The notes: generated by a model not told the origin, from the sequence alone. A stretch of 58,236 nt of DNA from Rhizaria sp. SCN 62-66 (GCA_001724265.1 MEDY01000180.1:1-58236), one strand, 5' to 3'. Shown: positions 20,911 to 58,236, counted from the first letter of the stretch. Made by a program: numbers and translations.

Positions 20911-21819
20911 ATGAGTGGGCTGTCCAAGGACGAGCGCTCCGAGCTCATCTCTTCCCTTAACGCCGTCGGCGGCCGCCTCAAGCTCAAGGGCGTCACCATT
21001 AAGGGCAACCGGTACGTTCCCGTGCAACTACTATCACCACTCTCAACCTTTGCTAGTTGTCGCACTCTACCACGATCTCACGTCTTCTTGTCTCGCAATC
21101 TTTGTTTTATGTCACGTCCCCAGCGTTAAGCGCACTGCCCCCGACCCGGAGCCGGCCCCCGTGGCAGCCGGCAACCGCCCCGCCGGCTCCTACAACGCCA
21201 ACAGCGGCGCCGGCGGCTACAGCGGCTACAACCCTCGCGCCGCGCACAACAACAACACCCGCGGCGGCGGCGGGCGCGGCGGCGACGACGGGCGCGAGCC
21301 TCCGCTGTCGGCGGCCCCGCTGTCGGCGGCAGAGCGCGAGGCCGCGGCGGCGCGCGCGGCGGCGCAGCGGGCGCTGGAGACAGCCCCGGCACTGCCCGTC
21401 AGTACGCTGCCTAAGACGAAGGCCGAGCGTGACTACGAGCGCGCGCAGGAGGAAAAGGTGCGCATATATTGCAACGCAATCGCTATATCTTTCCGAATTA
21501 CTTTCTTATTCACTTGCACATTAACGCTATCTATGCTATATCTTAGTTTTGTAACAATGGTAGCTCACTTGACATTTTTGCTTTCTTTGCTCCGATCCGT
21601 TTTTTTTTTCATCCCCCCATTCTTATGTTATCTCGACTCCGACCGTGACTGTGTCCTCTGATTGTAATCTCCGACTGCGATCTCTGACTGCGACTGCAGT
21701 CCCGCGAGGAGGCCGCCAAGCGCGCCCTCAAGTCCCACCGCGAGACGATCGAAGAGTTTAACACGGCGCTCGGCAAGCTCACCGAGCACAACCAGATGCC
21801 GCGCGTCGGCCCGGGCTAA
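20911..21819 (+). CDS. FAM32A: FAM32A (DUF1754) splicing-associated protein, 184 aa. Exons 20911-21011, 21124-21457, 21700-21819
   Basis: GGRLKLKG at the N terminus, KTKAERDYE, and C-terminal KSHRETIEEFNTALGKLTEHNQMPRVGPG, then TAA. Two canonical introns. Confidence 0.88.
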
Positions 21820-23026: not shown

Positions 23027-23372
23027 TCTCATAGCAAATGGCGTTTTTCTCGCTTTGTTTTCATATCCGCGAGGATGTTTTTGATATTAGGGCCAGGAGT
23101 GGTATATAGTCCATGTTCATACACTTTTATTGCTTAAATATACAATTTGTGCTGGAATATCGTCACTTTTGTTTCTCTGAATAACGTTTGTGGTGGAGGC
23201 GTTGTTCAAGTGGGCATCGAATTCTTTTTCATGTTGCAAGCGCGTGATCGACAAAACAAAACAGCACAATATCAGCACGTTCGACCCGTCAGCACGCTAT
23301 TATATGTATTCATAAATATATACCCCTCACACTAGATAACTTTCTCTTCATTCCGCCCCGCAGTCGCTGCGT

Positions 23373-26300
23373 ATGTTGTCGCGAATCTGGGGCATCTTGC
23401 GCGTCCCCGGCTCAGCGACCCCCGCGGCCGCCGCCCCCGCCAAGCCCGCTGCCGCGCTAGCCACAGCACGCGCCGCCGCTCGCGATGAAAACAGCCCCGA
23501 CTCGACCCCCGAGCTGCGTCTCGCCACGGCGCCGGCCAGCAACAAGGCTTCCGCGACCAATACTCCCCGCACTGGTGGCGGCTATACCGAGGTCGACTTT
23601 CTGGAGGACGACGTGCTTGCGCACTCTGCAGCAATAACGCAACATGCTACTATCTCAAGCGCAGCTAAAAGCAACACGGCTCGCAACGTGAGTAACGCTA
23701 ATGCTGCGAGTGCTAAGTTTGCTGCGCATGCGCGTGACTCAGACGAGAACACTCACCCTAACCAGAGCAACACGCCCCAGGGCACTGCACCAACGCTTGC
23801 GCTAACACCTGCGCCGACGCCGCACGCGGCCGACGCGTTGCAGCTGATCTACCCCGATACGCAGTGGGAGCGGTCTGCGCACCCCCGCACTCAGGCGCGC
23901 ACTGCCGCGGCCACTGCGGCTGCCGTGGCCGGCGCCGGCTCTCGTCTCAGCGCGAGCGGCCTCATGCCCCCGCCGCGCCCGCCGCCGCACGGCCACAGCC
24001 ACGGTCACGAGCGCAGCCGCAGCCGCAGCCGCAGTCCGAGTCGCAGCAATAGTGCGAGCCGTGGCCGTAGCACCAAGCGCAGCCGCAGTCGTGCGCCGTT
24101 GCTGCAGCCGTTGCTGCCAAACCACATGTACATGTACCACTCGCCGCTTCAGCGCACTCAACTCCAGCAACACCTTCAGCAACAGCAAGACGTAGCCACT
24201 GCGTCTGCGGAGGCTTCTGCAGCGCTGGCGCGAGGACTACAGGCACCGTCACAGCCGCAGCCTCAGGCTCAATGGCAATCGCTGTTGCAGGCGCAGTCTC
24301 TGCTGCAGCCGCAGCCCCAGTCTGAGTCGCAACTGCAGGTGCCGTATACGCCTGCTGCCTTCGCAACCGCTGTTCATGCGCCTGCAAGCACTCACACACT
24401 CACCAGCATCAGCCGCAGCACCGCCAATACTGCGATGGCGGCCGTGACGCCCGCGGTGCTGCAAGAGCGCGCTCTGGCCGCGACACGCGCCGCCACCGCC
24501 GCCGCAGCTGCCACTGCTGCAGCCGCCTCTGCGATGACGTCTGCAGCGGCGGCGTCGCGGTCCGCTGCGAGGTCATCTGCGTCAGTCGCCAAGAACGCCG
24601 CGTCAGTTGCTAAAAGCACAGCAAGCGTGGCCAAGACTGCTGCAACTGTAGTTGCGCGCGCGCCTGCAACTGCAACCGCAACAGCAGCAGCTGATGTTGT
24701 GGCTGCTTCCAGCTCACAGTCGAAAGCGCGTCCACAGTTGCAACCAGATGCTCTTGCAACGTCCGCTTCTGACGCCAACGCGCGCGCTGATGCTGACGAA
24801 CACAGTGACCATGTCCGTGCGCAGAAGCTGAGTGACGAGCAGCGCGGCCGTGAGCACGGTGACCGTGAGCACCACTTTGATAGTGACCGCGAGCAGCTCT
24901 CCCCGCCACAGTCCCTCGCACAGTCCCTCGCACAGTCCCTCGCACAGTCCCTCTCACAGTCACCATTCACAGTTGCAGCCCCGGTGTCGCCCTCGGTGAC
25001 TGCGCACGCGCCGTTCTCGCACTCTATAGTCGCGGCCGCTGCGACGCAGGCCGAGTACGAGTTCAAAGACCAGCCGTACCGCGCCCGCGAGCCGCTGTGG
25101 GAGCTGGCCGACGCCGCGCTCGCGCCGGCTAAGGGGATACTTAGACTCATCCGCAGCCGCGAGCAGAGGGCGCGGCTGCAACTGCAACAGCAGGGCGAAA
25201 GTCGTCAGGCTCGCAGGAGAAGTGCGAAGTCTAAGATGAGGGCGAGTGCAAAGGGCAAGAAGAACACGCTCACTAACAATAAGACTCAGTACATTAATGA
25301 TGATCATCATGATGACGAAGATGATGACGACAGCACTTCTATGCTCTTAGCCGCCGCCGCCGCCGCTGCCACAAGTGACACAGCCTACGGTGACTCCGAC
25401 ACTGCGCCAACAACAGCTGATGCGAGTGGGTTTGCTGAGTGCACCACGGCCACCGAGCCCGGCTGGGGCCTGGGGTTTCTGCTCACGGTCGCGGCCGAGG
25501 AGGGCGCGGTCGTGCCCGCCGCCGCGTGGGGGCTGCTCGCGCAGCTCCGGGAGGCGGGGGCTAAGGGGATACTTAGCGGGGATGAGGGGGTGCTTAGTGG
25601 CCATGTGAAGCAGGAGCAGGGGCTTGTGTCACTGATGGCTTCACAGTCGCAGTCGCCGTCAGAGCAGCAGCAACAGCAACAGCAACAGCTGCAGCTTGAG
25701 CAAGAGCAGGAGCAGTCAGCAAAGGCCGAAGCGGCTGCGGCAGATGCCCACACTGCAACGTCCACGGTCACTGTGGCCAGCCCAACGTCTAGTGCTGCTG
25801 CTGTTACCAATGCTGTTGCTGCTGCTGAGACTGGGACTGAGACTGATGTTGCTGCTGCTGTTGCCGCTCTGCACGTCGCTGCATCTCAGCCAGCGCCAGC
25901 GCCAGAGCCAGAGCCAGAGCTAGAGCCCGAGTCAGGCGCGGCCGCGCGGCGCAGCACTCGCCGCGCCAACATGGCAGCTGCTGCTGTTGCTGATACCGTT
26001 GATACTGCTGATACTGCAAGTGTAAGTGCCCGTGTCGGTGTAAGTAGTCGTGACAGTGTCGGTGTAAGTACTCGTGCGACGCGTAGCGCCAAGCGCGCTG
26101 CCTCCGAGCTCACGGCTACTTCTCTCAACGCAGCCACAACCGCAGCTCCCGCAAAGGCTAAGAGCGTGCTGCTGCACGAGCAGCAGCAGCAGCAGCAGGC
26201 GCAAAAGCAAGCGCAGCTACAAGACAGGACCAAGCGTGCGCGCCTGCGCAGTGCAGTGCGCGGTGCAATGCGCAGTGAGCTGCGTGCTCACAGTCAGGCT

Positions 26301-27488
26301 CAGGCCGGTCTTGCGATGGACAGTCGCAGTAAGACTGACAGCGACCGCGAGCAGGGGAGTGACCGTGAGCACATGCGTGACCGTGAGCAGAGTGACCGTG
26401 GGCAGGGTGACGGCGCTGCAGCAGCAGCAGCTGATGATGATGCTGCTAAAGACATCAGCAGCAACAACGACAACATTGTTGATGACAACAACGATGACAG
26501 CGTTGTTGAGCTGCCTTCATTGTCTCCGCCACTCTCGCCGCACTCCCAGTCAAGTGCCCGCTCTCGTGTCCAGTCACGGGTTTGGTCGCGCGTTCCGTCA
26601 CATGTTCCCTCGCAGTCCGAGTCGCAGTCTGACACGGACAGCAGCACTGAGAGTGACACTGATGGCGACAGCGACGACAATGACCGTGAAAGTGACCGTG
26701 GGAGTAACCGTGAGCAGCAGCCCGTGCCCGTGCCGTCCCCCACCACGGCGCATGCCCGTCTGAGTAGCGGTCAGAAGCAGAAGCAACAACAGCAACAGCA
26801 GCAGCAACAGCAGATGTTGCCTCTGGCAATGCGGCTCAGCAAGCTCCCCACTTCTCACAGCGGCCACGGTCACGGTCACGGTCAGGGTTACTTGGACACT
26901 CTGCGCGCTCTCTCGCAGTCAACCCACACACAGCAACAGCATCAGCAGCAGTCTGCTGATGCTGTTGCTGATGCTGCTGTTGGACTTGGCGTGTTCCAAG
27001 TCAAGGCGCCCCCTATGAGCGCAAGCGCGCGCTCTCTGCTCGTGGCCGCCGCAGCCCGGTGGGGCCCCCGCCCGGTCCATAGTAGCGGCAGCAGCAGCTC
27101 CAGCCACACCAGCAGCACTCACAGTTTCACCAGCAGCATCACGCACGCCGGAACGCATGCTGGAACACGCGGGGGTACCCAGCCGCAGCAACAGCAGGCG
27201 GGTGTCGGTGGCGGCATTGGCGCTGCGCGGTGGCGCAACGGCCGGTACGAGTACCTCCTCTGGGGCGTCCACAACACATCAAGCGCCACTGACAACAACG
27301 CAACAGCAGCAGCAACAGCAGCAGCAGCAACCTACAGTTGGGCGTGGGTGGCCGCGGGCCCGCGTGCCAGCGGCGATGTGGGACAGCAACCACACGCTGG
27401 GCAAACTGGGCCGGCAGTGACGGTGCAGGCTGCGGAGGCGTTCGGCCGCCTGGCGGGACTGCCAGTCGCCAAGTGGGCTGTGTGGTGA
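23373..27488 (+). CDS. Large low-complexity (Ala/Ser/Gln-rich) hypothetical protein, 1371 aa, with a possible degenerate chromo-like C terminus
   Basis: 4.1-kb uninterrupted ORF bounded by AT-rich spacers. C-terminal ARWRNGRYEYLLWG...YSWAW. Stop is TGA. Confidence 0.65.
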   Translation: MLSRIWGILRVPGSATPAAAAPAKPAAALATARAAARDENSPDSTPELRLATAPASNKASATNTPRTGGGYTEVDFLEDDVLAHSAAITQHATISSAAKSNTARNVSNANAASAKFAAHARDSDENTHPNQSNTPQGTAPTLALTPAPTPHAADALQLIYPDTQWERSAHPRTQARTAAATAAAVAGAGSRLSASGLMPPPRPPPHGHSHGHERSRSRSRSPSRSNSASRGRSTKRSRSRAPLLQPLLPNHMYMYHSPLQRTQLQQHLQQQQDVATASAEASAALARGLQAPSQPQPQAQWQSLLQAQSLLQPQPQSESQLQVPYTPAAFATAVHAPASTHTLTSISRSTANTAMAAVTPAVLQERALAATRAATAAAAATAAAASAMTSAAAASRSAARSSASVAKNAASVAKSTASVAKTAATVVARAPATATATAAADVVAASSSQSKARPQLQPDALATSASDANARADADEHSDHVRAQKLSDEQRGREHGDREHHFDSDREQLSPPQSLAQSLAQSLAQSLSQSPFTVAAPVSPSVTAHAPFSHSIVAAAATQAEYEFKDQPYRAREPLWELADAALAPAKGILRLIRSREQRARLQLQQQGESRQARRRSAKSKMRASAKGKKNTLTNNKTQYINDDHHDDEDDDDSTSMLLAAAAAAATSDTAYGDSDTAPTTADASGFAECTTATEPGWGLGFLLTVAAEEGAVVPAAAWGLLAQLREAGAKGILSGDEGVLSGHVKQEQGLVSLMASQSQSPSEQQQQQQQQLQLEQEQEQSAKAEAAAADAHTATSTVTVASPTSSAAAVTNAVAAAETGTETDVAAAVAALHVAASQPAPAPEPEPELEPESGAAARRSTRRANMAAAAVADTVDTADTASVSARVGVSSRDSVGVSTRATRSAKRAASELTATSLNAATTAAPAKAKSVLLHEQQQQQQAQKQAQLQDRTKRARLRSAVRGAMRSELRAHSQAQAGLAMDSRSKTDSDREQGSDREHMRDREQSDRGQGDGAAAAAADDDAAKDISSNNDNIVDDNNDDSVVELPSLSPPLSPHSQSSARSRVQSRVWSRVPSHVPSQSESQSDTDSSTESDTDGDSDDNDRESDRGSNREQQPVPVPSPTTAHARLSSGQKQKQQQQQQQQQQMLPLAMRLSKLPTSHSGHGHGHGQGYLDTLRALSQSTHTQQQHQQQSADAVADAAVGLGVFQVKAPPMSASARSLLVAAAARWGPRPVHSSGSSSSSHTSSTHSFTSSITHAGTHAGTRGGTQPQQQQAGVGGGIGAARWRNGRYEYLLWGVHNTSSATDNNATAAATAAAATYSWAWVAAGPRASGDVGQQPHAGQTGPAVTVQAAEAFGRLAGLPVAKWAVW
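24909..24956 (+). repeat. 12-bp coding tandem repeat CAGTCCCTCGCA x4 (QSLA repeats)
   Basis: Directly visible; the last unit has one substitution. Confidence 0.9.
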
Positions 27489-29615: not shown

Positions 29616-32600
29616 ATGTCTTCGCAGGTACGTCCTTATACAAGCGTTAGTATATTTTACATTCTTAATTTTGGCTTTTGAAAAATACCCACGTATCCCT
29701 TCCTAGCCGCTATCTCCAGACCACAACCAAGCCTTCACGACCGTTGATCTCGATCCTCCGCTCCCCGTTCTCACCACGCTCTGACCCGACTTTCGTTCAT
29801 CTTGTTTCTATTCTGCACAGGAGGCTATCGACGCCTCGTACGAAGAGGACATTCGGCGCAACCCGTACTCGCTGAACAATTGGCGCTACTACCTCTCGTT
29901 CAAAGCCGAGGCCCCGCGCTCGGTGCGCTACGCCATCTACGACCGCGCACTCTCGCACCTCCCGCGCTCCTACAAGCTCTGGCACGCCTACCTCACCGCG
30001 CGCCTTGCCGACTGCGCCGGCCTGCCGCCCTCGGCGCCCGTTTACGCGGACGTGAACGAGCTGTTCGAGCGCGCACTGATCCACATGCACAAGATGCCCG
30101 TCATTTGGCGCATGTTCCTCGACTTCCAGCTGCTGCAGCCGGCACGTATCACCGCCACGCGCCGCAACTTTGACCGCGCCCTGCGCGCGCTGCCCGTCAC
30201 GCAGCACTTGGCCTGGGTGTGGCCCAGCTACCTTAAGTTCGCCGACCAGTGCGGCGTCCCCGAAACGGCCATGCGCATCTGGCGCCGCTACGTCCGGCTC
30301 GCACCCGCGCAGCGCGAGGCCTTCGTTGACACGCTGCTGGCCGCCGGGCAGACCGACGCCGCGGCCGCCGAGCTCGCTGCGCTGGTCAACGACGAGCGCT
30401 TTGTCTCGCAGCGCGGCAAGACGCGCCACGACCTGTGGACGGACCTGCTCAAGCTCATCGTGCCCCACGCGGCGGCCATCACGTCGCTCGACACCGACGC
30501 CGTGCTGCGCTCCGGCATCCGCCGCTACCCGCACGAGGTCGCGCGCCTGTGGACCGCGCTGGCGGAGGTTTACACGCGCCAGGGCCTCTTCGAGCGCGCG
30601 CGCAGTATCTACGCAGAAGCCCTGGAGGCGGTCAACACTGTGCGCGACCTGGCCATCGTGTTTGACGCCTACACGCAGCACGAGGAGGGCGTGATCGAGG
30701 GCAAGATGGCCGAGCTGGAGTCGCTTCAGACCGAGCTCGACGCCTCCGTCGCTGACGAGTCGAACAACAACAACAACAACAACAGCAGCGCCAACGGCAG
30801 TGGCAGTGCGTCGACCGAGAGCGTGAGCGCCCGCAAGGCCCGGTTCGCGGCCGCGCTCAGCGCGTGCGAGCAGGAGGTTGACCTGCGCATGATGCGCCTG
30901 GACAAGCTCATCGCCTCGCGCCCGCTGCTCGTCAACACCGTGCTGCTGCGCCAGAACCCGCATAACGTGCCCGAGTGGCTCAACCGCGTCAAGCTCTGCG
31001 GCGGCGACCCGGCGCGCACGGTCTCGACCTTCGCGCTCGCAGTCGCCACGGTCGACCCCGCGCTCGCCGACGGACAGGCGCAGATGCTCTGGGCGCGCTT
31101 CGCCGCCTTTTACCAGCGCCACAAGCAATGGGGCGACGCGCGGTCCGTGTACGTGCGCGCAGTCGCAGCGCCGTACCCCACCGCCGAGGCGCTCGCGTTC
31201 GTCTGGCTCAAGTGGGCCGAGATGGAGCTCGCCGCGGGCAAGCCCCGCCGCGCGCTCGCCGTGCTGCAGCGCGCCACCACCCCTCCGCGCGACTACCGCA
31301 GCGCCGGTAGCAGCAGCAGCAGCGCCGGCTCTGCGAGTTCGCAGGCCAGCGCGAGTGTGTACAAGAACACGCGTCTGTGGGCGTTCTTGGCGGACCTGCA
31401 GGAGTCGTTGGGCCCTCTCGACGCCGCGCGCGCTGTCTACGAGCGCATGATGCAGCTGCGCGTCATCACACCCGCGCTGCTGCTCAACTACGCCAAGCTG
31501 CTGGAGGAGCACAAGCACTACGAGGACGCCTTCCGCGCCTACGAGAAGGGCGCGGCGTTGTTTCCCTATCCGGCCGTCGCGCCCGTGTGGACCGCATACT
31601 TGCGCAAATTTGTCGACCGCTACGGCGGCGCCAAGTTGGAGCGCACGCGCGACCTCTTCGAGCAGGCGCTCGCAGCCGCCCCGCAAGAGTTTTGCAGGCC
31701 CATTTACCTGCTCTACGCTCAGTTCGAGGAGCGCGTCGGCACGCCGCGGTACGTTTTTGTTAAGATAGAGACTATACGCAATATTCTGAATATGGTATTG
31801 TTTTTTCTTGTAGAATCGTTATAATTTAGTGTTTTCATCCGTTTTTAAATCATGAATCCTCGTTTTGTAAACAACTGTGTAAATCTAACGTGACATTTCT
31901 TCCCACTTTCCTACTTTCCTAACTTTTTCTTCCCTCGCTTTGCCTTCCTCGCAGTGGCCTGATGAAGGTTCTCGCGCGCGCCTGCGCGGCTGTGCCCGCA
32001 GCGACGCGCCTCGAGATGTACCTTGTGTACCTGGTCAAGGCCAGCGAGGCCTACGGCGCGGTGCGCACCCGCGACATCTTCGACCAGGCGCTGCAGGCGC
32101 TGCCCGACAGCGCTGTCCCGCTCATCGGCGCGCGCTACGCTGCGCTGGAGCGCGCGCTGGGCGAGATTGACCGCGCGCGCGGCGTGTACAAGTATTGCGC
32201 GCAATATTGCGACCCCAAGACAGAGGAGCGTTTCTGGTCCACGTTCCATCGCTTCGAGCTCATGCACGGCAACCAGGACACGTTCAAGGATATGCTTAAG
32301 GCCAGGTACGCAGATGTCGCCGAATTTACCTGTAACTGTGATGTAACACGATGAGCGAGGTCGCTTTAGAATACGTTTGGTTTTTATTGTGTCTTTTTGT
32401 ATCATTCATTATTCATTTAAGTCTCTTTGCTGTATTTGTCACATATCTCACGTTCTCTACCACTTTTGCCATTTGTGCTTGCTTTTCAATGAAACTTTGC
32501 TACAGGCGCGCGGCCAAGGTGCACTTCGAGCAAGGCGCCCTGGTCAACGCGGCGTTGGCACAGGCCGCCAAGCTCAAGGAGGAGGCCCGCCGCAAGCAGC

Positions 32601-33964: not shown

Positions 33965-36900
33965 ATGTCCAACTACAGCGACATTGACAGCGCCCGCGCT
34001 GTGGAGCAGGAGCTGGCGGCCGCTGCTGCGGTGTTTTGCGCGACGCGGACGACGTCCAACGCAACCATCACCACCAAACCCGACCACGACGCGGAGCTGG
34101 CTGCGTTTTACGCCGGCGCAAGCGTTGATTTCGCAGCCCTGCATGTGCCGCTGAAGTGGCCCGACTTGGCATCATTCAAGGGCAAGCCTGCGATAAATGA
34201 GCCGTTGATCCGCTTTCTCCCCGCGGCCAGTCCTGCGCCTTTGCTGCTGCCGCAGTACCACCGGTGGGATGACGACACCGGTGGCGTCGATGAAACTACG
34301 GACGGCGTCGTCTCCACCGCATCCTAGAGCTCCGAGAATGCAGTTAGTTCTATCGGTATGGCATCGACGGTGTTTAATCTGCCACGCAAACCGCGCAGCT
34401 CTGGGAGCCAGGCTCGCAGCGGTGCAAAAAGCAGTCCGTTCAAGTACAGCAACGACTCCCGCGGCTCGCTGCTCATTGCAGAGGCCCTGAGCGACATGTA
34501 CCTCAACGGCAAGCTCAGCGAGCACAAGGCCCGCGACGTAGTTGCAGAGCTCGCACGCGTGACACAGAACTTACCACCCTACATCGGGTCGTTCAACGGG
34601 GAGACAGGCCAGTTTGCGGTCAAGCAATCTGTCGCCGCATTCTCACGAGCGCCGGCGCCTGCACCAGCGCCTGCAGCAGCGTCAGCGCCAGAGCCCGCGG
34701 CAGCGTCAGAGCACGCGGCAGCGTTGCCGGCAGATGTGATCTATGGGAACAACGAGCTTTCACCAACAGACAATACCGACGCATTGCTGCAGTACACCGA
34801 ACCAGTCTTCCCTTTCCTCATCAAAGCCCACCGCCGCCTCACGCGCAACAGAGCACTTATTGCTCCCCAACCGGAGACAGGCGTATTTCTCGCAGAAATC
34901 TGCGACGCGAGAGCCTGGCCTTCGGTCGCAGCACTCAAGCAACTCGCGAACGTGTTTATTTCGCAGACCCCTCCACTCAATTCCAAAGAGCATCTCAGCG
35001 ATGTTGTGCTACTTGCGAACCAGCTCTACGAGTTGTTTCACCACGCCACGCGCACCGACACGAATGTCGGATTTGCGCTGCCCTGGCCCACCGGGCTTGC
35101 AGACCCGACGCTGGCCGCGCGCGCAGGTCCGCTGCTGCTGGCGCTGGCTGACGCGCGGTACCAGAACCGGCCCCAAATGCCCGCGACGGGGCCCTGGTCG
35201 GCGGTCAGGCAGCGGCAGATGTTTCTTATGAAGGCCGTGACCGCGTTGAACTTAGCTATCCACCCGATGTTGCGCTCGCTGTTCGCCGCCGACGTCGATT
35301 GGCGAAACGACTGCTCACCGGAATCTTTGGCGCTGCGTGCGGTTCAGCGGAGTGTGCCGAAGATCTTTGTCCAGGACGGGAGCCTTTTCACAATGGCGGA
35401 GCTTGAGCACATACTCGACTGCATGGCCGTGCTGTTGACAGTGGTCAACAGGTCCCGCCTGCCGCTGGTTATGGGGCGCTCGTACCCGGCCGTTGGTGGC
35501 GGCGGCGTGACATCATTCCATGAGTTGCGCTACCACTCGACCGTGCCGTCATTTCTTGCTAATTGTCTCAACCCACGCACACAGGACATGGCTGTGCAAG
35601 GCTCTGAGAGTCTGCGCAGTCAAATGCAGCTGCCGCTCCTGCCAGAGGGCGAACACGTGACGAAGTCGACTGTTGTGAGGGCGCTCGTGCGTTTATGGTA
35701 CCGCACGCGCGCGCTGCTTGTGACCGACCAGGCTGGTGTCGACGCTTGCTTCACACACTGGCATCTGCTACAGCGCGCTGTTGCTGCCAACCCAACGCTT
35801 TTAGAGATGTTTCCCACGGGTATATTGACGCCAACTGGCGTGGGAACAACGGTGCACACAATTCCAGCACTTATTGCACGTTTGCGCCTCTGTATTCCGT
35901 ACTATGCAGTTTCAGCCACTGCCCCTCTGTCTTGTAAGACGCTGCAAGAGGCTTTTACAACGATGGGCGCGTCGCAACAAGACGCGCTGCTGGTTGATTT
36001 GAGCGAGATGCTGCGATTGCTCGAGGATTTACCCTATTCTGTGTTTGAGTTCTCGCACTTTCTCACGCTCAAGAGCGCTCTGATGCCGTTCTATAACCAT
36101 CCGCAACATAAGTATCGTATTCGCCGGTTTATCGAGTTGTGTGGCAAATCGGCCGATGATATGCTCAATAGCGCGCTTTACGCGGTGTTATTTCACATAC
36201 TAAGCAAAAATCACAACGCATTTGGTAGCCCTAGTGAATACGTGACCGTGTATGCCGACTTGCGCAAAGACATCTTGCCTGCCGCATGCGCCTCGTTTGC
36301 GGCTGTCGACGCTATTGCCACGCTCGGAGCTGAGAACGAGTCGCAGTAGCAAATGAGCACCCGAGTCACTGCGGGCTTGGCGAAGCGGGATCCTAGAGCT
36401 CCTAACCAGGGCCTCTTGGTTGATTCCATATGGTATTTTTCTTTCGACTCGATTCCAGCGTCTTCACTAGCGTCCATAGACCTCGAGGCGCTCGACTGCG
36501 ATGACTTTTTCATCGGCCAGGTACTGCTCTCGACCATCTGGCGCTGCGACCCGTGGGGGCTGGCACGCATGTATAATAAGCCGACACCGATCAATTGGCG
36601 CCTATCCTACCTTGCTTTTAGCTTCGGGACTGTTCCATTCCTTCATAAAGATGATAAGTTGAGCACTAACGGGGTGGCCGGCGAACAGACCTTTGTGACG
36701 CCACTGTTTGGATGCTCTTTCGACCTCATCCCAGGTTTTTCATCGGCGGTGGAGACCTGGGCCTTCAGGTCCGGTGCCAGTGCCGCTGATTTTCGGACCA
36801 GGAAATTCTCGGTGATGAGCGCGCTGGCGCTTGTGGCACACCCGCTATTTAGCAATGCGCTCCTGCTCGAGGCAAAGTCCGTGGCGGATTTGTCGAGCCA

Positions 36901-38533
36901 TATCGGCGGGCTGTACTGCGAGATGATGGGCGTGCTGCACAAGAGCGTATACACAGGGGTGTTCAACGACGGCAAACTGCTGGACACATTCTTGGACACG
37001 GTTGGGCGGCTGCTCTCTGGGTGCAACCGCGTTGGCAAATTGCATCTGCGACATAACAACTTATCCGATGCGACTGGCGATGCATCGCCCCTCCGCCCGA
37101 ATGTGGGTTCGGTCCATCAGTCTTTGCGGTTCGTGCCAGGATTGCTTTGTGCGGGCTCAGCGGCCGAGAAGGACAGGACTGACGAGGCCATACTGGTGGG
37201 GCTGCCGCTGGATTTTTTTCCCGCTAATACGCGTGAAATGAGCGATATGTGCTTTATTTTACGCCTTCGACTCTGGTACCGGTTGCGCTTTGTTCCATGT
37301 CGCAGTGCACGCGAGATCGTCGTCCTTAGCCGGCTGCACGCGTCTTTGATGCGCAATGATGCTGAGTTAACCCATGCTCGCTTGCACAGCGGCGATGCTC
37401 TATCTGGTACCAAGAGTGCGACAGATACGGAGTCCATGGCGCAGGAGTTGGTGTCAAAACTCACAAGTTACCTCGTTTCTAGCGGCGCGCGAGATATTTA
37501 CCTGCTGCTGGATACCGTTCAAGGTGCGCTGTGGGCGATGGGGGCCACGCAGAGCGACTTGCCAGCTCGAGACGTCTGGTGGTTCCGCGAGCTGTTTCGC
37601 GCACTATCATATGATCTTGGGATCACATTCCCTCAGCAGACACTTCGAGAACTTTGCGAGTACGCCGCAAGCGAGGCCGTGCCAGTTTTCGAGCACACTG
37701 TCTCGGAGGTTTTCCGCGTGTCCACAGAGATGACTCTCGCTACTCGGGACACTGCGGGTGATGAACTTGATCCGACGCGCGACACGAACGTTATGGAGAT
37801 CGAGATGAATCCGTCAATGATGAAGGCCTTCTCAATTGCGCTGATGTGGCTCCACAGTTAGCGGTACGGCGACCCGCAGCGGGCGTCAGCTGCACTTACA
37901 GTGCAACGCCGACTTTTCCCGTTGGAGGCGAGCTCCAACACTGAAGCATGCAGTCGGAAGCAGCTGTACAGCTCCGTGGCCGACCGCCGCCGCGAGACCG
38001 ACACGTCGTTCCCCTGGCCGTTCCGCACGTGCGCCAAGGACATCCCGCGCGAGCGCGAGGCCTTGCGGCGCATCGCCAAAATGAACGCGCATCATGATCG
38101 TGATTTCGCGAAAAAGACAAGGATTCATGACTTGACGATCCAGGCTCAGACGCGGCTTCAGGTGGGTGGCTTTTGGAAGCAGCTCATCTCCCAACTCGAG
38201 CACAAAGGTCCGCTGCACGATGCGACGTTACGAGAGTTTGCTCGCCAAATGCAGCGCCCAAGTGCGAGTGGTGTGTGGCGGAGCAAGAGTGACCACGCAC
38301 TTTACCAGGGCTCGACACTCAAAGGGTTCAAGCATGGGCGCGGCGTGCAGCGCCACTCCGACGGCACAGTGGAGCGCGGCAGATGGGCTGGTGGAGTCAT
38401 GATGGGGGCTTTCGAGATTGAGAGACCCGGAGAACCGCTTGCGCGAGTTACGTACGCGACTGGCAAGGTGACGGGCGTGGTCACAGCGGTCGACGCAGGC
38501 GCCGTTGGGGCGTTATTGATGAGGTTCGTGTGA
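33965..38533 (+). CDS. Single 1522-codon reading frame with three in-frame TAG codons (34325, 36347, 37859): an unknown tandem-duplicated domain plus C-terminal MORN repeats
   Basis: The track ORFs 33965-34327, 34358-36349, 36353-37861 and 37901-38533 are all in one frame. The gaps (30, 3, 39 nt) are stop-free and each break is a TAG. C-terminal YQGSTLKGFKHGRGVQRHSDGTVERGRWAGG is MORN-like. Ends in TGA. Confidence 0.7.
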
Positions 38534-38972
38534 CGGCGTGTGTCTCTGTCCCCTCACGCATTCCTCGTCTGGCGGATTTTAAGTTATTTAGCCACAACAT
38601 GTCTTTTAAATGAATGTAGTTCTATATTTAGCCTATTTTATTGAATATAAATGCTTAAATAACCCGATTACATGTTGGGGTTGTCTATGAAAGCAAGTGT
38701 CTGTCACGCGTAGCGAGTGTAACAACCTTCTGTGAATGCTCTAGGATATCACACTAACACGAGTTTCTATCACAATTCTCAAGTAAAAAACATATAAAAT
38801 GACACGAATATTATAAAACAATCATTTATTCAATACACAATTAATTTGATATGCTAGCTAAGATTCATATGATAAACTTGGTTATATTGATACCCCCAAC
38901 GAATGACTGAAAGTCGCGGCGGCCGGTAATCCCCTCGGCACCGTCACCGTCACCGTTCCAGCCATCGTCAAC

Positions 38973-48288: not shown

Positions 48289-49814
48289 GTAGCAAGTACT
48301 TCATGTATAGCTCTCAAGTGTTTGTCTTCGTACCTTCTGAAGGTACACTTTGTATAGTACTCTGTGATTGCCCCCCCCCTTATCCCCATTGCTCATGTGT
48401 CAAAGTTCCTCGTCGAGGTTCCCAGTGTAACGTGATGAAATGTAACCAACGCGCGTTTCCGAATCATGTGTGTTTAGCACCACCGAAGTAAGTACTTTCG
48501 CCACAACCGTTTTTTAAGTTTTCGGCTTGTCGAAGTACTTTTGATTTCATATTGCTCTGTTTTGTTGCGACATTTTTGTTGCTGTGATTACACTGTCCCT
48601 CATTACACGGCACTTCGCTGTTCACTTGTTGACGTTGCCCCTAATTTGTTGCTGTTGTCGCGGAGCGTGTTTCGCCCTCTATTTGTTCTCGACGCCACTC
48701 TCTTTGCTGCCCCCTATCCCCTGTGTACTCATGTGTTCACTGAAGCAATCCATGTTTCTGTGTTACACGTGTGTGTTTGCGTTTGCATTTATATGTGTAT
48801 ATGTATCCCTCTTTTCCCCCCTCTTTTTGTCTTGTTTTTCCTTCGCTTGCTCTCCTCATTTGTCCCCGAAATCTTTATTATATCAAATTGCGTTGATTTT
48901 TTGTATGCGTTTTATTTTTTCGCTTAGTCCGTGCTTTCGTAACTTCATTATCTGTTTTAGTAAGTCATTCCACGACACACCGCTTTATTTGCTTGCTCGT
49001 GGCTATGTCGCCCTTCCCCTTTTCTGCCTGTTTCAGCTCTGTGTGTTCTTCGCACTCTGCCTGTGCCAACCCACGAGTCTGCGAACGTGCTAGTGACCTT
49101 TTTCGCGTTGCCTCTCGTCTTCATTCGTGGGCGTCGTGTTGCGTGTCTCGTTTGCTTTTCATGTTCTTTCTATCAATTCCCGTTGTTTCCACTTATGCGC
49201 TACGCTCTGTCTGCTCTCGCTTGCTGTTCATGCTGCGGTTTTTCTAGAGTGGCTATTGTCACGATTGATTCGTACAATCGCCATCTCTGAACATCACAAA
49301 GCATCTCATCATCCAAGCAGCTCCAAGCAGCGCCAAGTAACTTCAGCGCATCGCATCACGACCCCATGTTTCTGCACGACATCTCATCATTATGCCGTAG
49401 TCTTGTCCTGATCAGTTGCTCCTTTCAGCATGGTCAGTCTGCTTTGGTGCCTTGTGCGCGGCGACAAGATTGCAACTCTCATAACATCAAAAATCCCAAT
49501 AATAATCACCACATCTTTTAATGTATATTTCCGTTTAATACCTTGTTGTCATTCGATTCCACTCATGACAATAGCGTCACGCTCAGTATTTGGTCTTAAG
49601 AAGAAAGAACATTCGTCGCAGTCCCAAACAGCACATTCATCGCGAGCAGCACTGCGTCGCTCATCGCCAGGAGCAGCGTGTTATCTTTACTGTGTAGTTG
49701 GCTGTTGATGCCACATTACTGCTCTTGCATCATCTGCTAAAGCAAGTATGGCAGCGATGTTCGGTGTGCACAATCGAACCGCTGCATGGACTGTGTTCTT
49801 TTCATGTTAATTTA

Positions 49815-49844
49815 ACAGTTAAATCGTCGACAGTTAAATCGTCG
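49815..49844. repeat. Perfect 15-bp direct tandem duplication ACAGTTAAATCGTCG x2
   Basis: Directly visible in the non-coding region. Confidence 0.9.
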
Positions 49845-52161
49845 TGTTGTTTCACGTACACGATTTTCAATGTTTGCGGACGCTTGTGTTTTATGTGTTT
49901 ACGTTTAGTGATCATTAGTTATCTGTACCTTTGTTTTATCTCATTGAATTATTTTATCCATTGTTTTTATCCGGATCATATTCTAGCTACTCATTTGTTA
50001 TCTCTTTCGTGCGTTTTGTTTCGTTGCTGTTTCTGCCTGCACACTCTTTTTTTTCTGCAGTTCATCAACCCTTTGTATTGCTGACAAACTTGCTACATTA
50101 CCGTTAATAGCAAGCTTGTTTGCAAGGTCAGCTCGTTCAAGCCTATCACCGTTTTTCCGTCATCACCGTCATAGGCTGCTTTTTCACGTCCAGATCGCCA
50201 TTGACGCTGCTGTTGTTGTTTGCTAAACGCAGTGAATTCTCGCGAGCTGTATGTGTTTTAGACGTGGAGGTTTGCAGATGTTTCTTTTTTTAACATGTGT
50301 TTTTTTTGGTCATCCCCGCCCCTGTTCCTCTTGATGTCCTAATTCATCATCGCGCTCCCGCGGTGTTTGTATTGCCTTCACCATTGCCGTTGCCATAGTT
50401 ACTTGGTTACTGTCGCCCCCATCATTTCTGTCGTCTTCACCGACGTTTGCTCTGCGTGTTGTCATGTCTGCGCATTCACTCTTTCATTCTTTCATTCTCT
50501 CTTTCGTTCTCTTATGTTTGCATCCTGCCCTGTTCTGCTCCGCCGCGACGCTGCGTCATCGTGACCTTCAGCAGAGCTCGCGCGCCGATGTTCGAACCAG
50601 AACCTTTCACCCCTCCATTCTCGTCACTGTTCTGCTATGTTCTATTCTGCCCCACTCTGTGTTTCCCATTACGTTAGGTCTATCTTTCTCCCTGGTGATC
50701 AATCCTTTCTTATGTTGTTTCGGCCGTCGATCCTCTTACACACACACATCTCACCCGCGAGTATGTATAATTTCTAGCCTACTTTGCTTTCTGCACTCAA
50801 TTCCGCCTCCGCTCCGTCGGAGTGCCCCCCGAGTCGCATCCTATGTATGTCCACATCGTGTGTATCAGTACCAACGCCATTTATCTTTTCATTTTACCCG
50901 TTATCACTTAGTTTATTTTGGTTTATTTTTATCTACTAGCATGTTTTTGTCTTCTTGTTTCCGCGTTTGACGCCGCTGCCGTCGTCGTGATATTTTGACC
51001 ACACGTTCTATACGAGAACATCAACTCCTCGGCTTTATCCTCCTGTCTCAAAAGCAATTGCTTGCTTTGGTGGAGACATGAGTACTCTCGCATCATACCC
51101 GTGTGAGTCCTATTGCCAGGTACACACACACTTATTGTGTGCTAACAGAGTACCGCTGTGTGAAGTTGTAGTCATCGTATTTTACTTGGTCTTCTGACCA
51201 CGACTCTGTGCGCCGCATCGCAAAACACAAGACCTTATCCATAGCAACGACAATATCAAAATCAACAACACAAACAACATATGTATCTATTCCTTATCAA
51301 TATCCCTTTCGTCACCAGCCTCGTCATCACCTTCAGCATCACTTAACACATTACACTCAGCCACCTTTTCATGCACACACACACACACTCGCTCGCTCTC
51401 TCGCTCGCTCGTAACCAACCCAAGCAACCCTCGCCGCGTGCGCCCTCGTCCTTCGCTGCCACTCTCGCTGCGCTCCACGCGCGACGTCCGCTCTCGGTTG
51501 TGCACTGCTCTCGCCCCACTCTCTTTCATACCCACTTGCTTTGTCGCAATCATCGCGGCACTCATGGTATGGGAGGAGTTGGGGTCGGTCCGTGTCGTCG
51601 TTCGCGTTCGTAGCCGTGGGTCTCAACCTGAAGTGCAAAGCGGCTCGGGGCGCGCTGGCCGCAAGCCATGTAGCCGTGTCTTTGCTTTATTTACGTTTAT
51701 TTCAACGATCAGCAGTATTCTCCGTGTCAACGCCTTGTATGCTCTATATTGCGTTGCTTATGTCCACGATCTCTATCCTTTTTAAGGGTCTCGCCACAAA
51801 TTTTCATCTCCTGACAGTCGTGTTGAGAATACTACTATATGTTGTCGTAAAAGTAGATGTTTTAATCAAAGCCACACAATACACACCGCGCTTGCTCGCA
51901 CTATATGGTATTTTGCCTAAGAAAGCTGGCCTAAGAAAGCTGTTTCTCCAAACCAAGCGATCTCTCAGCATGGATAATGTACCTGAAGTACAAATATTCT
52001 TTTGCGAAAAGGACTAAGACATATACTTATAATAACTATGTATGCATTTGTTTTATACCATAAACCGTAACATTGTTCTTTTTCAAGCGCAGCCTTCAAT
52101 GCGTGCGTTTGCCTCATCTGGCTTGCTTTGCTGGCTGCATTGCCACGGGCGACAGACGCGC

Positions 52162-52810
52162 TTAGGCGTCCCTCTGAAAGGACTCCATGGCCGACAACAG
52201 GTCCTGCAGCCCCTCGCGGTGCACGGCGAACTTGTCGCGGACTGTGGGCAAGACGCGGAAGAGCTCCTCGATGTCGAAGAGGCCGAGGTTGACGATGCTG
52301 GCCGCCTCGAGCGGGTCCAGACTCGGCTGCAGAGGCATGCCGGAGGCCGCGAGGTGCTCGTTGTCGCGCGCGACGCGCTCCAAAAAGGTGTCGACAGCGC
52401 GGCGCACCTGGCGCGTGCTGTCGGCGTTGCGGAACATCTGGCAGGACGTCAGGTAGTTGCGCGTGGTGCGCTGCAACTCCCTGAGTAGAAAGCGAGGACA
52501 ACAAAATGCGGAAGTATAGGGGAGATATAAGAGATTGATGGCACCACGTAAAAAAATCGAATAGAACCAGTGACGCAGTATGCAAAGTCCGCCATGCAAA
52601 TGTTGTACGGATTCATAGTAGAGCAGTCCCGGGACAATGAGGAGGAGCAAGATGAAGTATTGATATGTGGATTGCTGTGACGTACTGGACGGGGTTGTCG
52701 TTGTAATTGGTATGCTCAGCACTGGCCTTCTCGAGGAGCTCGTTGGCCTCATCGTTCCAAATCCACTCAGCGTTCTTGTACTGGGGGCCGGGCACAGGGA
52801 GCGACGACAT
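52162..52810 (-). CDS. RPB4: RNA polymerase II subunit RPB4-like protein, 147 aa. Exons 52810-52686, 52480-52162
   Basis: YKNAEWIWNDEANELLE, TRNYLTSCQMFRN, LDPLEAASIVNL...IEELFRVLPTV...LQDLL follow the RPB4 layout. Intron 52685-52481 (GTACGT..CAG); stop is TAA. Confidence 0.75.
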
Positions 52811-53350
52811 ACGTACTGCCGAGGGATGCGCGCGAGACAGGGAAGCAGTCGAAGGGGAATAAGCAGGAGACGTATAGAGAAAGATGATGATCAATTTGAG
52901 AGAAATCAGAAAAATATAATATACCGAATTACAATTGAACCCTAAGGTAATCGCTTTGATATCGCCTATCGGTTCTACTGAGATGCGCTATCCATTTGAA
53001 GTTGCCCGTCTGTGCGTCGTGCGGCTGACCGGTGCCAACGGCTGGGGTTGATCTTCTGCTTTCACTACTCCATACAGGCTTGTATCATCGTCACATTCGA
53101 ATGCAACGGCGCATACGCGCTGTTACCGCTACCATGTTTTTATTATATAATTAGTTTTCGCGAGATATGTAAGCTCACCTCTTCTGCTTGCTCGCCCCCC
53201 CCACCCCTGCACCACTTGCAAGTCAGCAAGTAAACTTTCTCGCCTGCGTCTGACGAGCGCGCATCCATTTCACGAAGCCACAGTTCGCTATCACTAAACC
53301 ACTACGTTTTTGTTAAACGGTACCACCGCTGTCTTTTTGTAAGCTCTCAG

Positions 53351-55151
53351 ATGCAGACCGCCATGTTCCCGGACAATTCGTTCGGTGGTGAAATGGGCTC
53401 GATGGACGGGATGTCCGGCATGGGCGCCCCGCAACAGCAACAAGGTACGCGTGATTTCGCGGTGTAACACGCGACTATCACTGCTTATTTTTATTATACT
53501 ACCTCATCATTTCGCTGCGTCCTGCTCGTCTATTTGTCCTTTTATCATAGGCTGGGGCAGCCGCACCCACCCTGCTCCTCCTCAGCAAGCCCCCATGCAA
53601 CAGCAGCAGCAGCAGCCTCAGCAACAACAACAGCAGCAGCAGCCTTTGCAGCAGCAGTCGCAGGGCTTTGGCGGCGGCTTCTTCGGCGGCTCCTCCCCTG
53701 CCGCGAGCGCCGCCGCGTCCGTGCTGGGCGCAGGCATGAGCTTCATGACGTCCCAGCTCGTCGGCCCTGCGGGCAGCGCGGCCAGCGCCAACTCGGCCGC
53801 CGCGGCGGCTGCGGGGCCCAGCTCCGCGCACGACGCATTCGCCAAGGCTGCCGCACAGGCCGCGCTTGACTCGGGCTCGTCGTACGTGCGCCAGAACGTC
53901 AAGGGCTGGTTCTCCTGGCTATCGCTCGACTCGCTGCGGCCCTACTTCCACGTCTCTAACACCTACGTCGTCAACAAGATCGCGCTCGTGCTCTTCCCCT
54001 ATCCGCACCGCGACTGGCAGCGCAAACCGCAGGGCGCGTCTCTGTCCGTCGCGCTCGGCGGCGGCGGCGTTCTCGGCGCCCCTGAGACGCTGTCGCGGTC
54101 GCCGTCCCTGATTCAGCAGCAGCAGCAGCCCGGTAACGGCTTCGGCGGCTTCAGCGGCGGCGGCGGCGGTAACTCGATTGCGTCGACCCCCGGCGCGTCG
54201 CCGCCGCTGTTTGCGGCCGCCGCGCCCGCGCCGCCCTCGCGGCCAGTTCCGCCCCATGTGTTGGCCGCCGCCGACGGGATGCAGTTGCCACCGGACGACC
54301 TCAACGCGCCGGATCTCTACCTGCCGCTCATGGCCTTCGTCACCTACGTGCTGCTGCGGGGCTACATCGCGGGGCTCTCGGACCGCTTCCACCCCGAGCA
54401 CCTCAGCGCGCTGGCGTCCAGCACCTTCGCGATGCTCGCTGTGGAGCTCATCCTGCTGCGCCTGACCGTCTTCCTCGCAGGCTCCGCGCTGGCCGCGCCG
54501 AAACTGCTCGATTCGGTCGCCTATGCTGGCTACAAGTACATCGGCTTCATTGCCACGCTCGGCGCCGGCCTCGTCTTCGGCCGCGCGGGCTTCTGGACGC
54601 TGCTCGCGTTTACCTCGCTGTCGCAGGCCGTCTTCTCGATCCGCGTCGTCGCCGCCGCCACCGCGGCCGCCGCCGCCGCCGCCTCGCTGGGCGCGGCGGG
54701 TGGGACGCAGCACGAGACGGCGGCGGCCGCGTCGTGCCGCCGCACGTCGCTGCTGCTGCTGGGTGCGATGCAGGTTGTCATCGCGCTCTTCCTGCTGCGC
54801 GGCGCCATGCCCGACAGCCTCGCCGCGTCGCTCATGCCCCTCGGCGCCGGTAGTAGCACCGGCAGCGCCGGTGGTAGCGGCGGCGGCGGCGGCGCGGGTG
54901 TCGGGATGGGCGCGGGCGCGGTCGGGGCCGGCGGCGCGGCGGTGGGCAGCGGGAGGCGCGCGGGCAAGATGCCCAAGCTGCAGCGGCAGCCCGCGGTGGG
55001 GCCCGACGGCGACCGCGACGGCGACGGTGGTGAAGGGGTTGTGGCGGAGCGCGCTGCTGCGGGCGGCAAGAACCGGGCCAAGGGCGCGGCGCGGGGCGCG
55101 GTGGCTGAGGCCGAGGCTGACGATGAGTTTGAGGGTGATGACGACCAGTGA
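53351..55151 (+). CDS. YIF1: YIF1 ER-Golgi membrane protein, about 564 aa. Exons 53351-53444, 53551-55151
   Basis: LRPYFHVSNTYVVNKIALVLFPY, DLNAPDLYLPLMAFVTYVL, RFHPE, LLDSVAYAGYKY. Intron 53445-53550 (GTACGC..TAG); stop is TGA. Confidence 0.93.
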
Positions 55152-55985
55152 GTGGAGTGAACCCGTCGACGCTAAAGTCCACGTTACTCTGAGAGTGGGC
55201 CACGGCCGGTTGAAGCTGTTGAAGCCGCTAACGAATCGACGTCGTTCAGCGACAGCAACAGCGACGCGCTCAGGCGTGGTCTCCGATATGTGAAGAAAAA
55301 TCAAGCACATGTGCACGCGTCTCTAACGAGCACTGAGTGTGCAGGGCAAACATAGGCGAATACGTTTGTGGTTGGAATAGACTCTGTATGCATTGTATTA
55401 CGCATAATATGACACATGATCCTTGTTCCAAATCAGTCTATACATATTATTGTGCTTGTTTTCAAAACGAACATTGTTTTTGAATCGATCTGATATGTAT
55501 GACAGGAAACCTGGGAATCAGTTGCCATGGTCGCTGGGTCGCGGCTTACCTTAGTTGCCTCGGCTGGCAGCAGCCTCCCAGCAGAGTTTTTCTTTCTTTT
55601 TTAGATATTGAGTTGTGTTTTTGCCGTTTTATTAAACAATCAATTAGGAATACGACGAATATACCCAATAAGTTTGATTGCACACCATCGAACGTCATAA
55701 TTTATCACAATCTTGATCAGTTTCTAAGGCCATCCTCTCATCCTCCTCCTTGTTTCCTGGTTTGCCCGCTTCTTTTTGCTCTCTTGCGCTACCGGCACCG
55801 CCCACAATAGCCTCTCGCGCTTGCCTGCAGTTTTCATAGACAAATTAACCTACTTCTTTTGGTGCATTGGTCTCAGTCCGCTCCGCTTTCTCCTGCAAGC
55901 GACACATAAACATTAAAGCGCTGTCCTGCTCTTGCTCTCACCACTCAGTTTGTTGAAGGTCGGAGCGTTCCCCACAACACAGCAG

Positions 55986-58236
55986 ATGCTGAGACGCAGT
56001 CGATGGGGGGCATTGCGCCTCCTGTCTCTCATTGCTCTTGTGATGCTCATGGCATCTATGGTCTCTGCACAGTGGTACTACAGCACCACGAAGTCCTCCG
56101 TCCATATAGCCTACGAGACGGCGGGTCAAACCTGCATCGAACAACTACCGTCGTTGCACGGCAGGTGGTTGCACGTTCTACATGTACTATGGCAAAACTG
56201 AGGCATATGCGCTTGACTATGGCTGCGTCAACACGATTACTAACTCCTTTAACTACTGCGGCGAGTGGTCGCCACGAGGCCTCAACTGTTGGTGTGATGA
56301 TGCCTGTTGCTCTTATAACGACTGCTGCTGGGACAACGTGCGCAACTGCAAGGCGCCGCTCATTGACGGCGTACAGCCCACCCGTGCGCCGACAGGCCCC
56401 TTGAAGTCAACCATTCTCACGCTCACCGGCGACGGCTTCGCCTGCCGCGACAAGTCCACGACCCCGCAGGCGTACGTCACCATGCACAACATGCGCGGCG
56501 CGGCTCGCCCCGCGAACAACATCAGCCCCAACGCCTACGTTGTGCCCACCAGTACGATGATCGCGACGACGCAGCTGTACACCTCGTTCTACTTGCCCTA
56601 GGACTACGGCCCCAACTGGTACTTTATCCTGCGTAACTGCTACTTCGTGGTCGGTCCCGCGTCCGCAGACCTCTTCTCGTACAACGTGCCGTCGCTGGAG
56701 GGCCTCTCGCCGACGACGGGCGCGACCCGTGGTGGCAAGGCCGTACTCGTGCTTTCGACGATGCAGGGAACGAGCTTCGGCAACAGTGTACCACTCACGG
56801 CCGGTCTCACCGTCGCGCGCTATTACTGCACGCTCAGCAACGGCTCAACCGGCGTCTTCAGCACGGTGTACAACACCAATATGACAGTGACCAACCACAC
56901 GAAGCTGATCTTCTACCACCCGGCTGGTGAGGGCACGTGCAGTGTCTCGCTCGAAGTGAGCTCGCAGTCTGTGTCCGTGTCGCGCCTGTCGTTCGCCTAC
57001 CAGCCGCCGACGATCACGTCCGTGACCCCGTCAGTGTCGCTCACGCCTGGCACCTCGATCACCCTCAGGGGACAGAACTTCGGCGTCACGCCCAGCGTCA
57101 CCGTCGCCGACATCTCCTGTCCGGTTACGAGCAGCACCGTCGACGGCACGACCGAAGTCCTGGTCTGCACGCTGCCGCTGGGCTACCGCGTGTCGCAGCC
57201 CGTCGTTGTGGCCGCCGGCGGCCAGCGCAGTAACGTCGTCTACGTGTCGTACGCGGCGCCGGTCATCAGTATCGTCAGCCCGTCGACCGGCCCCACGGCC
57301 GGCAGTACCGCCGTGACGCTTACCGGCACCGGCTTCTACATCAGCGGCTCGATGATCTTCGGCGGCACGACGTACGCGTCGACAAACACGACGATGTTCA
57401 CGAGCTGGACGACGACCCAGATCGTGTTCAAGACGCCTGCCGGACAGGGCAAGAACGTGGCCATCTACCTCGTCGTCGGTGACCAGCTCTCGGCCACGCC
57501 CGGCGCCTTCAGCTACAACGCGCCCGTGATCGCGAACGCCACGCCCAAGCCCGGCGCGTCGGGCGCCACGCTCACGATTACGGGTACTGACTTCGGCACC
57601 AGTGGCTCCGTCGCCGTCTCCGGCCTCGACTGCGCCATTTTGACGCACGCCACGACCCAGATCACGTGCACCATCCCGACGGGCTACGGCAACAACAAGG
57701 CCATCCTCGTGACCATCAGCTCGCAGTCGTCCAACTCGTATGCGTGGAGCTACCCCGTGCCAGTGGTTTCGACAGTGAGCCCGCTCACCGGCGGCACCGA
57801 AGGCGGCTACAAGCTCACCATTGAGGGTCAGTACTTTGGCGACACGGGCAGCTTGCTCTTGGGCGCCATTGGCACGGCCACGTCGGGCATCAACTGCGTT
57901 AGTTCCTCCTGGACCGCCACGAAGATCATTTGCGAGCTCGCCTCTGGCAGCGGTCAGAACCTCTACGCCATCGTCTCCTCCGGTGGCCAGACCGGCGCCG
58001 CCCCCATGGGGTACCTCTTCTCGTACGGCGCGCCCACGGTTACTTCCGTGACGCCGCTGACGGGCTCCACGTCCGGTAGCACGCAGCTTATCATCACGGG
58101 CACCAACTACGGCTCCAGCACCGTCGCGCAGGCCGCAGGCGTCGTCACCATCCGGTACGACTCGCTCGCCGGCGGCGCCAACTGCACGCTGCAGTCGCGC
58201 GACCACACGCAGCTGCTGTGCTCGACCAGCATCGGT
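55986..58236 (+). CDS. Secreted/surface protein: signal peptide, somatomedin-B-like domain and multiple IPT/TIG repeats. Contains an in-frame TAG (56599) and a frame discontinuity near 56125-56165; runs off the window
   Basis: Signal peptide MLRRSRWGALRLLSLIALVMLMASMVSA. SMB-like CWCDDACCSYNDCCWD. Repeated P-x-I-x-x-V-x-P...ITLxGxNFG...CTLPxGxG...FSY units, open from 56602 to the window end. Confidence 0.8.

Follow-up and report, generated by a model that had tools for sequence, protein, structure and literature searches.

Gene content and introns of the window

The window, that is, the whole stretch of 58,236 nucleotides that was analyzed (Rhizaria sp. SCN 62-66, GCA_001724265.1, MEDY01000180.1:1-58236), is nuclear DNA whose source is an uncultured eukaryote of wastewater and bioreactor metagenomes, with a high GC content and few introns. 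It encodes the splicing factor Syf1, YIF1, a TPP enzyme, an M49 peptidase, an RRM protein, and ankyrin and CBS proteins; the genes are long, with few introns. The GC content ranges from 48 to 75% across the window (2-kb steps), and we take the sequence to be unlike ciliate macronuclear DNA. Neither tRNA genes nor Rfam families were found in the window. Near-identical sequence was found in bioreactor, wastewater, and activated-sludge metagenome runs from 8 studies, and in the four runs that were compared, contigs of 1 to 2 kb had 0 differences from the window. A metagenome scan returned a single locus, L001, which is an independent metagenome contig. When Syf1 and a piece of the orphan gene described below were used to scan genome contigs, no match was obtained, and scans of viral contigs gave none either. 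An Atlas search with Syf1 yielded no taxon, and the GTACGT donors led to no usable taxonomic clue in the literature searched.

Introns were placed by Pfam continuity and composition, which yielded seven examples. These inferred introns have a strict GTACG donor and a YAG acceptor (TAG included), lengths of 106 to 206 nt, and a GC content of 0.34 to 0.48. This donor type accounts for the GTAC donors mentioned in the earlier note.

12280-12404, 12875-13000, 13533-13674, and 21012-21123: introns, AT-rich, GTACG...YAG
31749-31954, 32306-32505, and 53445-53550: introns (continued), AT-rich, GTACG...YAG

Positions 48300 to 53300 form a stretch of approximately 5 kb with a low GC content (0.48 to 0.56), a pyrimidine-rich + strand, and strongly negative GC and AT skews, in which 0 of the 13 open reading frames tested had a Pfam match.

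A giant TIG-repeat gene with an in-frame TAG

The 3' end of the window harbors the beginning of a gene for a protein with IPT/TIG repeats, whose features are as follows.

55986..56135, + strand: initial 50 codons of the TIG gene, including the start codon and signal peptide (translation; frame of 55986)
56135..56136, + strand: junction lacking 17 nt; in the window, the signal peptide and the remainder of the gene are in different frames as a result
56136..56598, + strand: coding sequence before the TAG (frame of 56110), with the Cys-rich module and the first three quarters of TIG-1
about 56254-56355, + strand: Somatomedin-B/PSI-like Cys-rich module (Somatomedin_B 20.8 bits, below the cutoff)
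from about 56359 to about 56682, + strand: TIG-1 (homologue alignment and model strands)
56599..56601, + strand: in-frame TAG in a TIG-1 loop; the second allele reads GAA
56602..58236, + strand: rest of TIG-1 and further TIG repeats; the open reading frame runs off the window

An earlier note on this DNA had claimed that a TAG lies in frame at 56599 to 56601 and that the frame then stays open for more than 1.6 kb. Both claims are borne out by the sequence, which reads locally FYLP-TAG-DYGPNWYF in the frame of 56110, a frame that is open over 163 codons ahead of the TAG and over the 545 that follow it to the window end. The note had also proposed looking at the gene beyond the window for further stops. 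In a search of 1.84 billion representative proteins, there was one close match, P0003 (4,564 amino acids, E = 2e-64), which starts at a GTG 15 codons past the TAG, is identical to the window in 529 of 529 shared residues, and carries the frame on for 4,564 codons with 0 stops. A second protein, P0056, differs from P0003 at 1 of 4,564 residues, and the two come from two contigs of about 104 kb. The N-terminal piece of the TIG protein had no match among proteins of 163 to 522 amino acids, and an exact look-up of three N-terminal variants of the open reading frame found none of them in the protein collection.

Taking the N-terminus from L001, the gene has a length of approximately 4,790 codons (210 + 1 + 15 + 4,564). 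To judge from its sequence, the product would be a secreted, membrane-anchored giant protein of some 4,790 residues. In the predicted layout, the signal peptide is followed by a small Cys-rich module, numerous TIG repeats, numerous ephrin-receptor-like Cys repeats, and a C-terminus of the TRP-like multi-pass type. Pfam finds 16 TIG stretches and 23 ephrin-receptor-like stretches in P0003, and a TRP-type multi-pass region below threshold (22.9 bits versus a cutoff of 28.5). In the window part, PF01833 (IPT/TIG) is found above its curated cutoff in 5 stretches (E = 1.1e-45, 153.9 bits).

In the window, the start codon and signal peptide do not share the frame of the TIG repeats because 17 nt are missing at 56135/56136. 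These 17 nt are present in the three other sequences that cover the site (L001 and the contigs of runs X3 and X4), and with them the ATG at 55986 and the signal peptide of L001 read straight into the TIG frame. The gap may be a fault of the assembly or, alternatively, a null lesion that this haplotype carries separately, in which case it is a real frameshift allele. It sits 460 nt upstream of the TAG, and the window copy therefore holds two lesions.

The TAG itself recurs. L001 carries it, with the ATG and signal peptide in frame and without the deletion, and is identical to the window in 1,744 of 1,744 aligned bases. A contig of run X7 (56371-56604, 0 differences from the window) has the TAG as well, as does part of the X4 depth. 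Run X7 is labeled RNA-Seq, but it was judged to be probably DNA and also covers the gene-poor low-GC stretch, so its TAG contig was not counted as RNA evidence. Overall, a genuine, exonic, and unspliced TAG stands at 56599, and it recurs across independent assemblies.

The codon would be gone before translation if it were spliced out, with the TAG as an intron acceptor. Two features lend this some plausibility: the TAG is preceded by 12 nt rich in pyrimidines, as in real acceptors, and there is a perfect GTACGT at 56472, 130 nt upstream, a typical intron length for this genome. Nevertheless, that distance leaves a remainder of 1 on division by 3 (GC 0.62), the donor at 56552 lies at 50 nt with a remainder of 2 (GC 0.56), and the donor at 56577 is only 25 nt away. 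Moreover, the stretch before the TAG has a GC content of 0.62 to 0.63, compared with 0.34 to 0.48 in the introns of this genome, and it encodes TIG strands that align with homologues. A contig of the polyA-RNA run X8 is colinear with the window over 56500-56853, spanning the TAG, with zero gaps. The earlier note had held that the nearest GTAC donors would shift the frame if the TAG were an acceptor, and the lengths bear this out, while the composition and the RNA contig also speak against splicing; the TAG was accordingly rejected as an acceptor. A splice from the GTACGT at 56472 combined with the 17-nt deletion would remove 147 nt (130 + 17), a multiple of 3. This candidate was also rejected, since the intervening frame contains stops (e.g., the TGA at 56199); for the same reason, the 147-nt match and the intron mimicry at 56472-56601 are a coincidence.

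We next considered where the TAG falls in the protein. That it lies within a TIG domain, as the earlier note had it, is supported by the homologue alignment and the predicted structure but less so by Pfam, which sees TIG-1 only below threshold (17.3 to 18.5 bits on TIG-1 alone versus a cutoff of 20.9; profile positions 1 to 53 of 84). Five homologues with the same N-terminal layout, a Cys-rich module and then TIG, align across the site. Opposite the TAG stands position 2 of their P-x-G-x-G turn, which is P in three of them, T in one, and A in one. In an AlphaFold2 model of 56230-56994 built on a 24-row alignment (mean pLDDT 72.9), the TAG codon corresponds to residue 124 and lies in the loop that connects strands 117 to 121 and 130 to 135 of a sandwich spanning residues 44 to 151. 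The pLDDT blocks around the codon are 81 to 91, and two confident strands follow it. According to this model, an Ig-like beta-sandwich would span the TAG position, and a stop there would cost TIG-1 its last two strands and the protein all that follows.

The best Foldseek matches of the 56230-56994 model are the PSI-IPT regions of MET (6gcu, 5lsp, and 7mo7) and plexins (E = 2e-7 to 3e-5, probability 1.0), with which the protein also shares its Pfam TIG repeats. The TM-scores are low (about 0.3) because domain orientation differs. Unlike MET and plexins, the protein lacks Sema and kinase domains; in their place, its TIG and ephrin-receptor-like repeats number in the tens, and its C-terminus is TRP-like and multi-pass.

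The sister-repeat motifs that the earlier note had listed as carrying an ordinary residue at this position are present in P0003. The equivalent residue in 18 matches to the motif, which include a few that are not true TIG turns, is A in 8, T in 3, S in 3, and L, E, N, and C in 1 each. Since the TAG site is thus a variable loop residue, the position does not reveal the encoded amino acid.

The codon is also polymorphic. At 56599, contigs of three runs read GAA (Glu), with 6.53 of 6.53 depth in X3, 4.2 of 10.3 in X4, and 3.6 of 3.6 in the RNA run X8; relative to the window, GAA arises via T56599G plus G56601A. Up to 56514, the X3 contig (56038-56957) matches L001 exactly; beyond that point, there are differences at 14 positions, and the contig therefore represents an allele of the same locus. 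The presence of GAA in the polyA-RNA contig shows that this allele is transcribed. Run X8 shows GAA alone at a depth of 3.6, and as contigs drop rare variants, it is silent on the expression of the TAG allele; the same run has zero cover at 37800-38466 and 55809-56475. The earlier note had considered that another codon at this site would speak against its reading, and this came true in part, with GAA in the contigs of X3, X4, and X8, and TAG in L001, X7, and part of X4.

The TAG codon aside, the listed differences that separate the window from the GAA allele comprise 11 synonymous and 5 nonsynonymous codons, giving a pN/pS of about 0.16 over 56500-57796 among those differences. If half of the divergence were neutral, 5 or fewer nonsynonymous differences among those listed would have P = 0.0007. 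The relaxed constraint of a pseudogene is not seen in this ratio (about 0.16, among the differences listed). Overall, the gene around the TAG is intact and under purifying selection.

Terminators, codon counts, and an orphan gene with three TAGs

In the window, 0 of 12 gene terminators are TAG, 5 are TAA, and 7 are TGA. In the terminator test, TAG was taken to make up 20 to 30% of stops, for which the chance of 0 of 12 is P = 0.014 to 0.069, in what is a small sample. Four further candidates were dropped as terminators: the TAA at 31822 (Syf1) and the TAA at 12290, which are intronic, and also the TAA at 18770 and the TGA at 21659. In-frame stops within 13,905 exon codons amount to 4 TAGs, in 2 genes, and 0 TAA or TGA, a usage of about 0.3 TAG per 1,000 codons, or 4 TAGs in about 14 genes. 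The four TAGs have no downstream context common to them, and none stands at a conserved alignment column, the orphan gene having no homologues. Three of the four are in that single gene (P = 0.005 if spread evenly).

33965..38533, + strand: orphan gene of 1,522 codons, ending in TGA, with three exonic in-frame TAGs
34325..34327, + strand: orphan-gene TAG 1
36347..36349, + strand: orphan-gene TAG 2
37859..37861, + strand: orphan-gene TAG 3; window sequence matched without differences by contigs of X3 (37800-38803) and X7 (37800-38063)

Across its 1,522 codons, the orphan gene contains 0 TAA, 0 TGA, and 0 frameshifts, and the four segments delimited by the TAGs have a GC1/GC2/GC3 pattern in common. 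The surroundings of the TAGs have a GC content of 0.53 to 0.65 and no upstream GTAYG-type donor in frame. Three looser GTG-type donors are in frame and would give introns of 654 to 675 nt with a GC content of 0.53 to 0.57. In the protein collection, fragments of the gene cut exactly at the TAGs are found on 4 to 7 contigs from several sources. Homologues were found neither among proteins of 839 to 2,673 amino acids nor among shorter proteins, where the only matches were its own fragments, and no Pfam family was found in it. An Atlas search with its largest fragment returned nothing above 0.85, and the Atlas model of that fragment has a pLDDT of 0.35. The GC3 of the gene, 0.67, is the second lowest of the exons measured, next to 0.65 for the gene at 23340-27485. 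TAG accounts for 54% of the single-step nonsense paths in this gene, and the chance of all three being TAG is P of approximately 0.16. The orphan gene could be a young pseudogene.

Decoding of UAG and comparison with known codes

Because three other exonic in-frame TAGs are present in the window and 0 of 12 terminators are TAG, the best reading of the TAG at 56599 is as a sense codon. We consider it probable that UAG is decoded as an amino acid, most likely Gln or Glu, and that UAA and UGA remain stops. This is the direction in which the earlier note had pointed when it took the TAG as independent support for UAG as sense, but the polymorphic codon and the 17-nt deletion make that support weaker than it had appeared. 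The TAG at 56599 would then be a normal sense codon, though an infrequent one, located in the loop that separates the last TIG-1 strands. By analogy with known UAG reassignments (PMC5304391, PMC11687900), it would be read by a tRNA with the anticodon CUA, and eRF1 would no longer recognize UAG. As to the amino acid, Gln, the commonest precedent, and Glu, the residue of the other allele, are about equally likely by inference. If UAG is glutamate, the TAG and GAA alleles are synonymous. The full statement, UAG as glutamate with UAA and UGA as dedicated stops in a GC-rich, non-ciliate, uncultured wastewater eukaryote, is offered as a tentative possibility.

Since the codon is polymorphic and the GAA allele is transcribed, a segregating nonsense allele is a live rival, although we regard it as unlikely. 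Under the standard code, the TAG would be a premature stop defining a segregating null allele of a dispensable gene for a giant surface protein, GAA would be the working allele, and the neighboring orphan gene would be a young unitary pseudogene. The pair GAA/TAG does resemble a recent GAG-to-TAG nonsense allele, and it is the GAA form that the polyA-RNA contig holds. The window copy has the 17-nt deletion as a second disabling lesion, yet L001 has the TAG without it, and the 4,564 downstream codons are intact. The earlier note had named mixed disabling mutations in the rest of the gene as a sign of a pseudogene; such a lesion does exist in the window copy as the 17-nt frameshift, but neither in L001 nor in the 4,564 lesion-free codons downstream. 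For a null allele, the TAG form is also widespread (the window, L001, the two 104-kb contigs, X7, and X4), and the low pN/pS, with its P of 0.0007 among the differences listed, argues against relaxed constraint. The concentration of three of the four TAGs in one orphan gene with a GC3 of 0.67 and no homologues fits a decaying gene, and TAG is the likeliest nonsense outcome in this composition (a share of 0.54). That gene would nevertheless have acquired three nonsense codons with 0 frameshifts and 0 TAA or TGA in 1,522 codons. The standard code requires, all together, that a young pseudogene has gained three nonsense codons and no indel, that a null allele of an otherwise intact 14-kb gene is widespread, and that TAG is absent from 12 terminators by chance.

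Ambiguous or leaky decoding appears very improbable. UAG would then be a stop in some contexts and be read through efficiently here, giving short and full-length products, and a natural suppressor or near-cognate tRNA would be the agent. The rarity of the codon, 4 in 13,905, is what would be expected if read-through were costly, and context-dependent stop/sense codes are on record (PMC5304391). However, no gene in the window ends in TAG, the four TAGs lack a common downstream context, and three serial read-throughs in one gene would yield very little full-length product unless each was efficient. Lastly, removal or change of the TAG before translation, by splicing or RNA editing, or its origin as an assembly or sequencing artefact, has scarcely any probability left and is already largely refuted by the donor lengths, the composition, the TIG strands, the colinear RNA contig, and the independent assemblies.

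If UAG is indeed sense, the case would be a further member of the UAG-only reassignments, with very low TAG usage. Reassignment of UAG alone, uncoupled from UAA, is described in PMC5304391 and PMC11687900 for only a handful of eukaryotic lineages. UAG-only nuclear codes are described in PMC5304391 for Iotanema spirale, in which UAG is Gln, and for Rhizaria sp. exLh, in which UAG is Leu and 384 in-frame UAGs occur in 71 genes. As in these two, only UAG is found in frame here, UAA and UGA are the sole terminators, and the organism is not a ciliate (PMC5304391). Usage differs widely from that of exLh, with 4 UAGs in about 14 genes here compared with 384 in 71 there (PMC5304391). Phyllopharyngean ciliates, described in PMC11687900 with UAG as Leu or Gln and UAA as the preferred stop, are alike in that UAG alone is reassigned and in that their codes were found by mining metagenome-derived genomes. 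In contrast to these ciliates (PMC11687900), the window has a GC content of 48 to 75%, GTACG-type spliceosomal introns, and both TAA and TGA as stops.

Two further systems are relevant to glutamate. In Blastocrithidia nonstop, UAR is Glu, UAA also serves as a stop, and UGA is changed too (PMC12153298), and in a ciliate, UAA and UAG are described as specifying two different amino acids (PMC10553269). The codes with UAG as Glu are like the present case in that the second allele here encodes Glu (GAA), and unlike it in that UAA and/or UGA are also reassigned there, while TAA (5) and TGA (7) terminate genes here (PMC12153298, PMC10553269). In the literature searched, we found no description of UAG as Glu with UAA and UGA both dedicated stops, and no paper tying a wastewater eukaryote to UAG reassignment.

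UAG-only reassignments bear on how eRF1 tells UAG from UAA. If true, the present case would add an independent data point, apparently at an early or low-usage stage, in a GC-rich, intron-bearing protist. Because this protist recurs in wastewater reactors, material for proteomics and for recovery of the tRNA and eRF1 is obtainable. There is also a practical side: gene callers that use the standard or a bacterial code split TAG-bearing genes, and the protein collection holds the fragments as separate proteins.

Finally, run X4 contains a third variant of the Cys-rich N-terminal module (56187-56381), more diverged than the others, with at least 19 differences in 14 codons, 8 of them nonsynonymous, together with a 1-base variant of the 17-nt segment. 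On this comparison of sequences, the N-terminus of the giant surface protein looks hypervariable.
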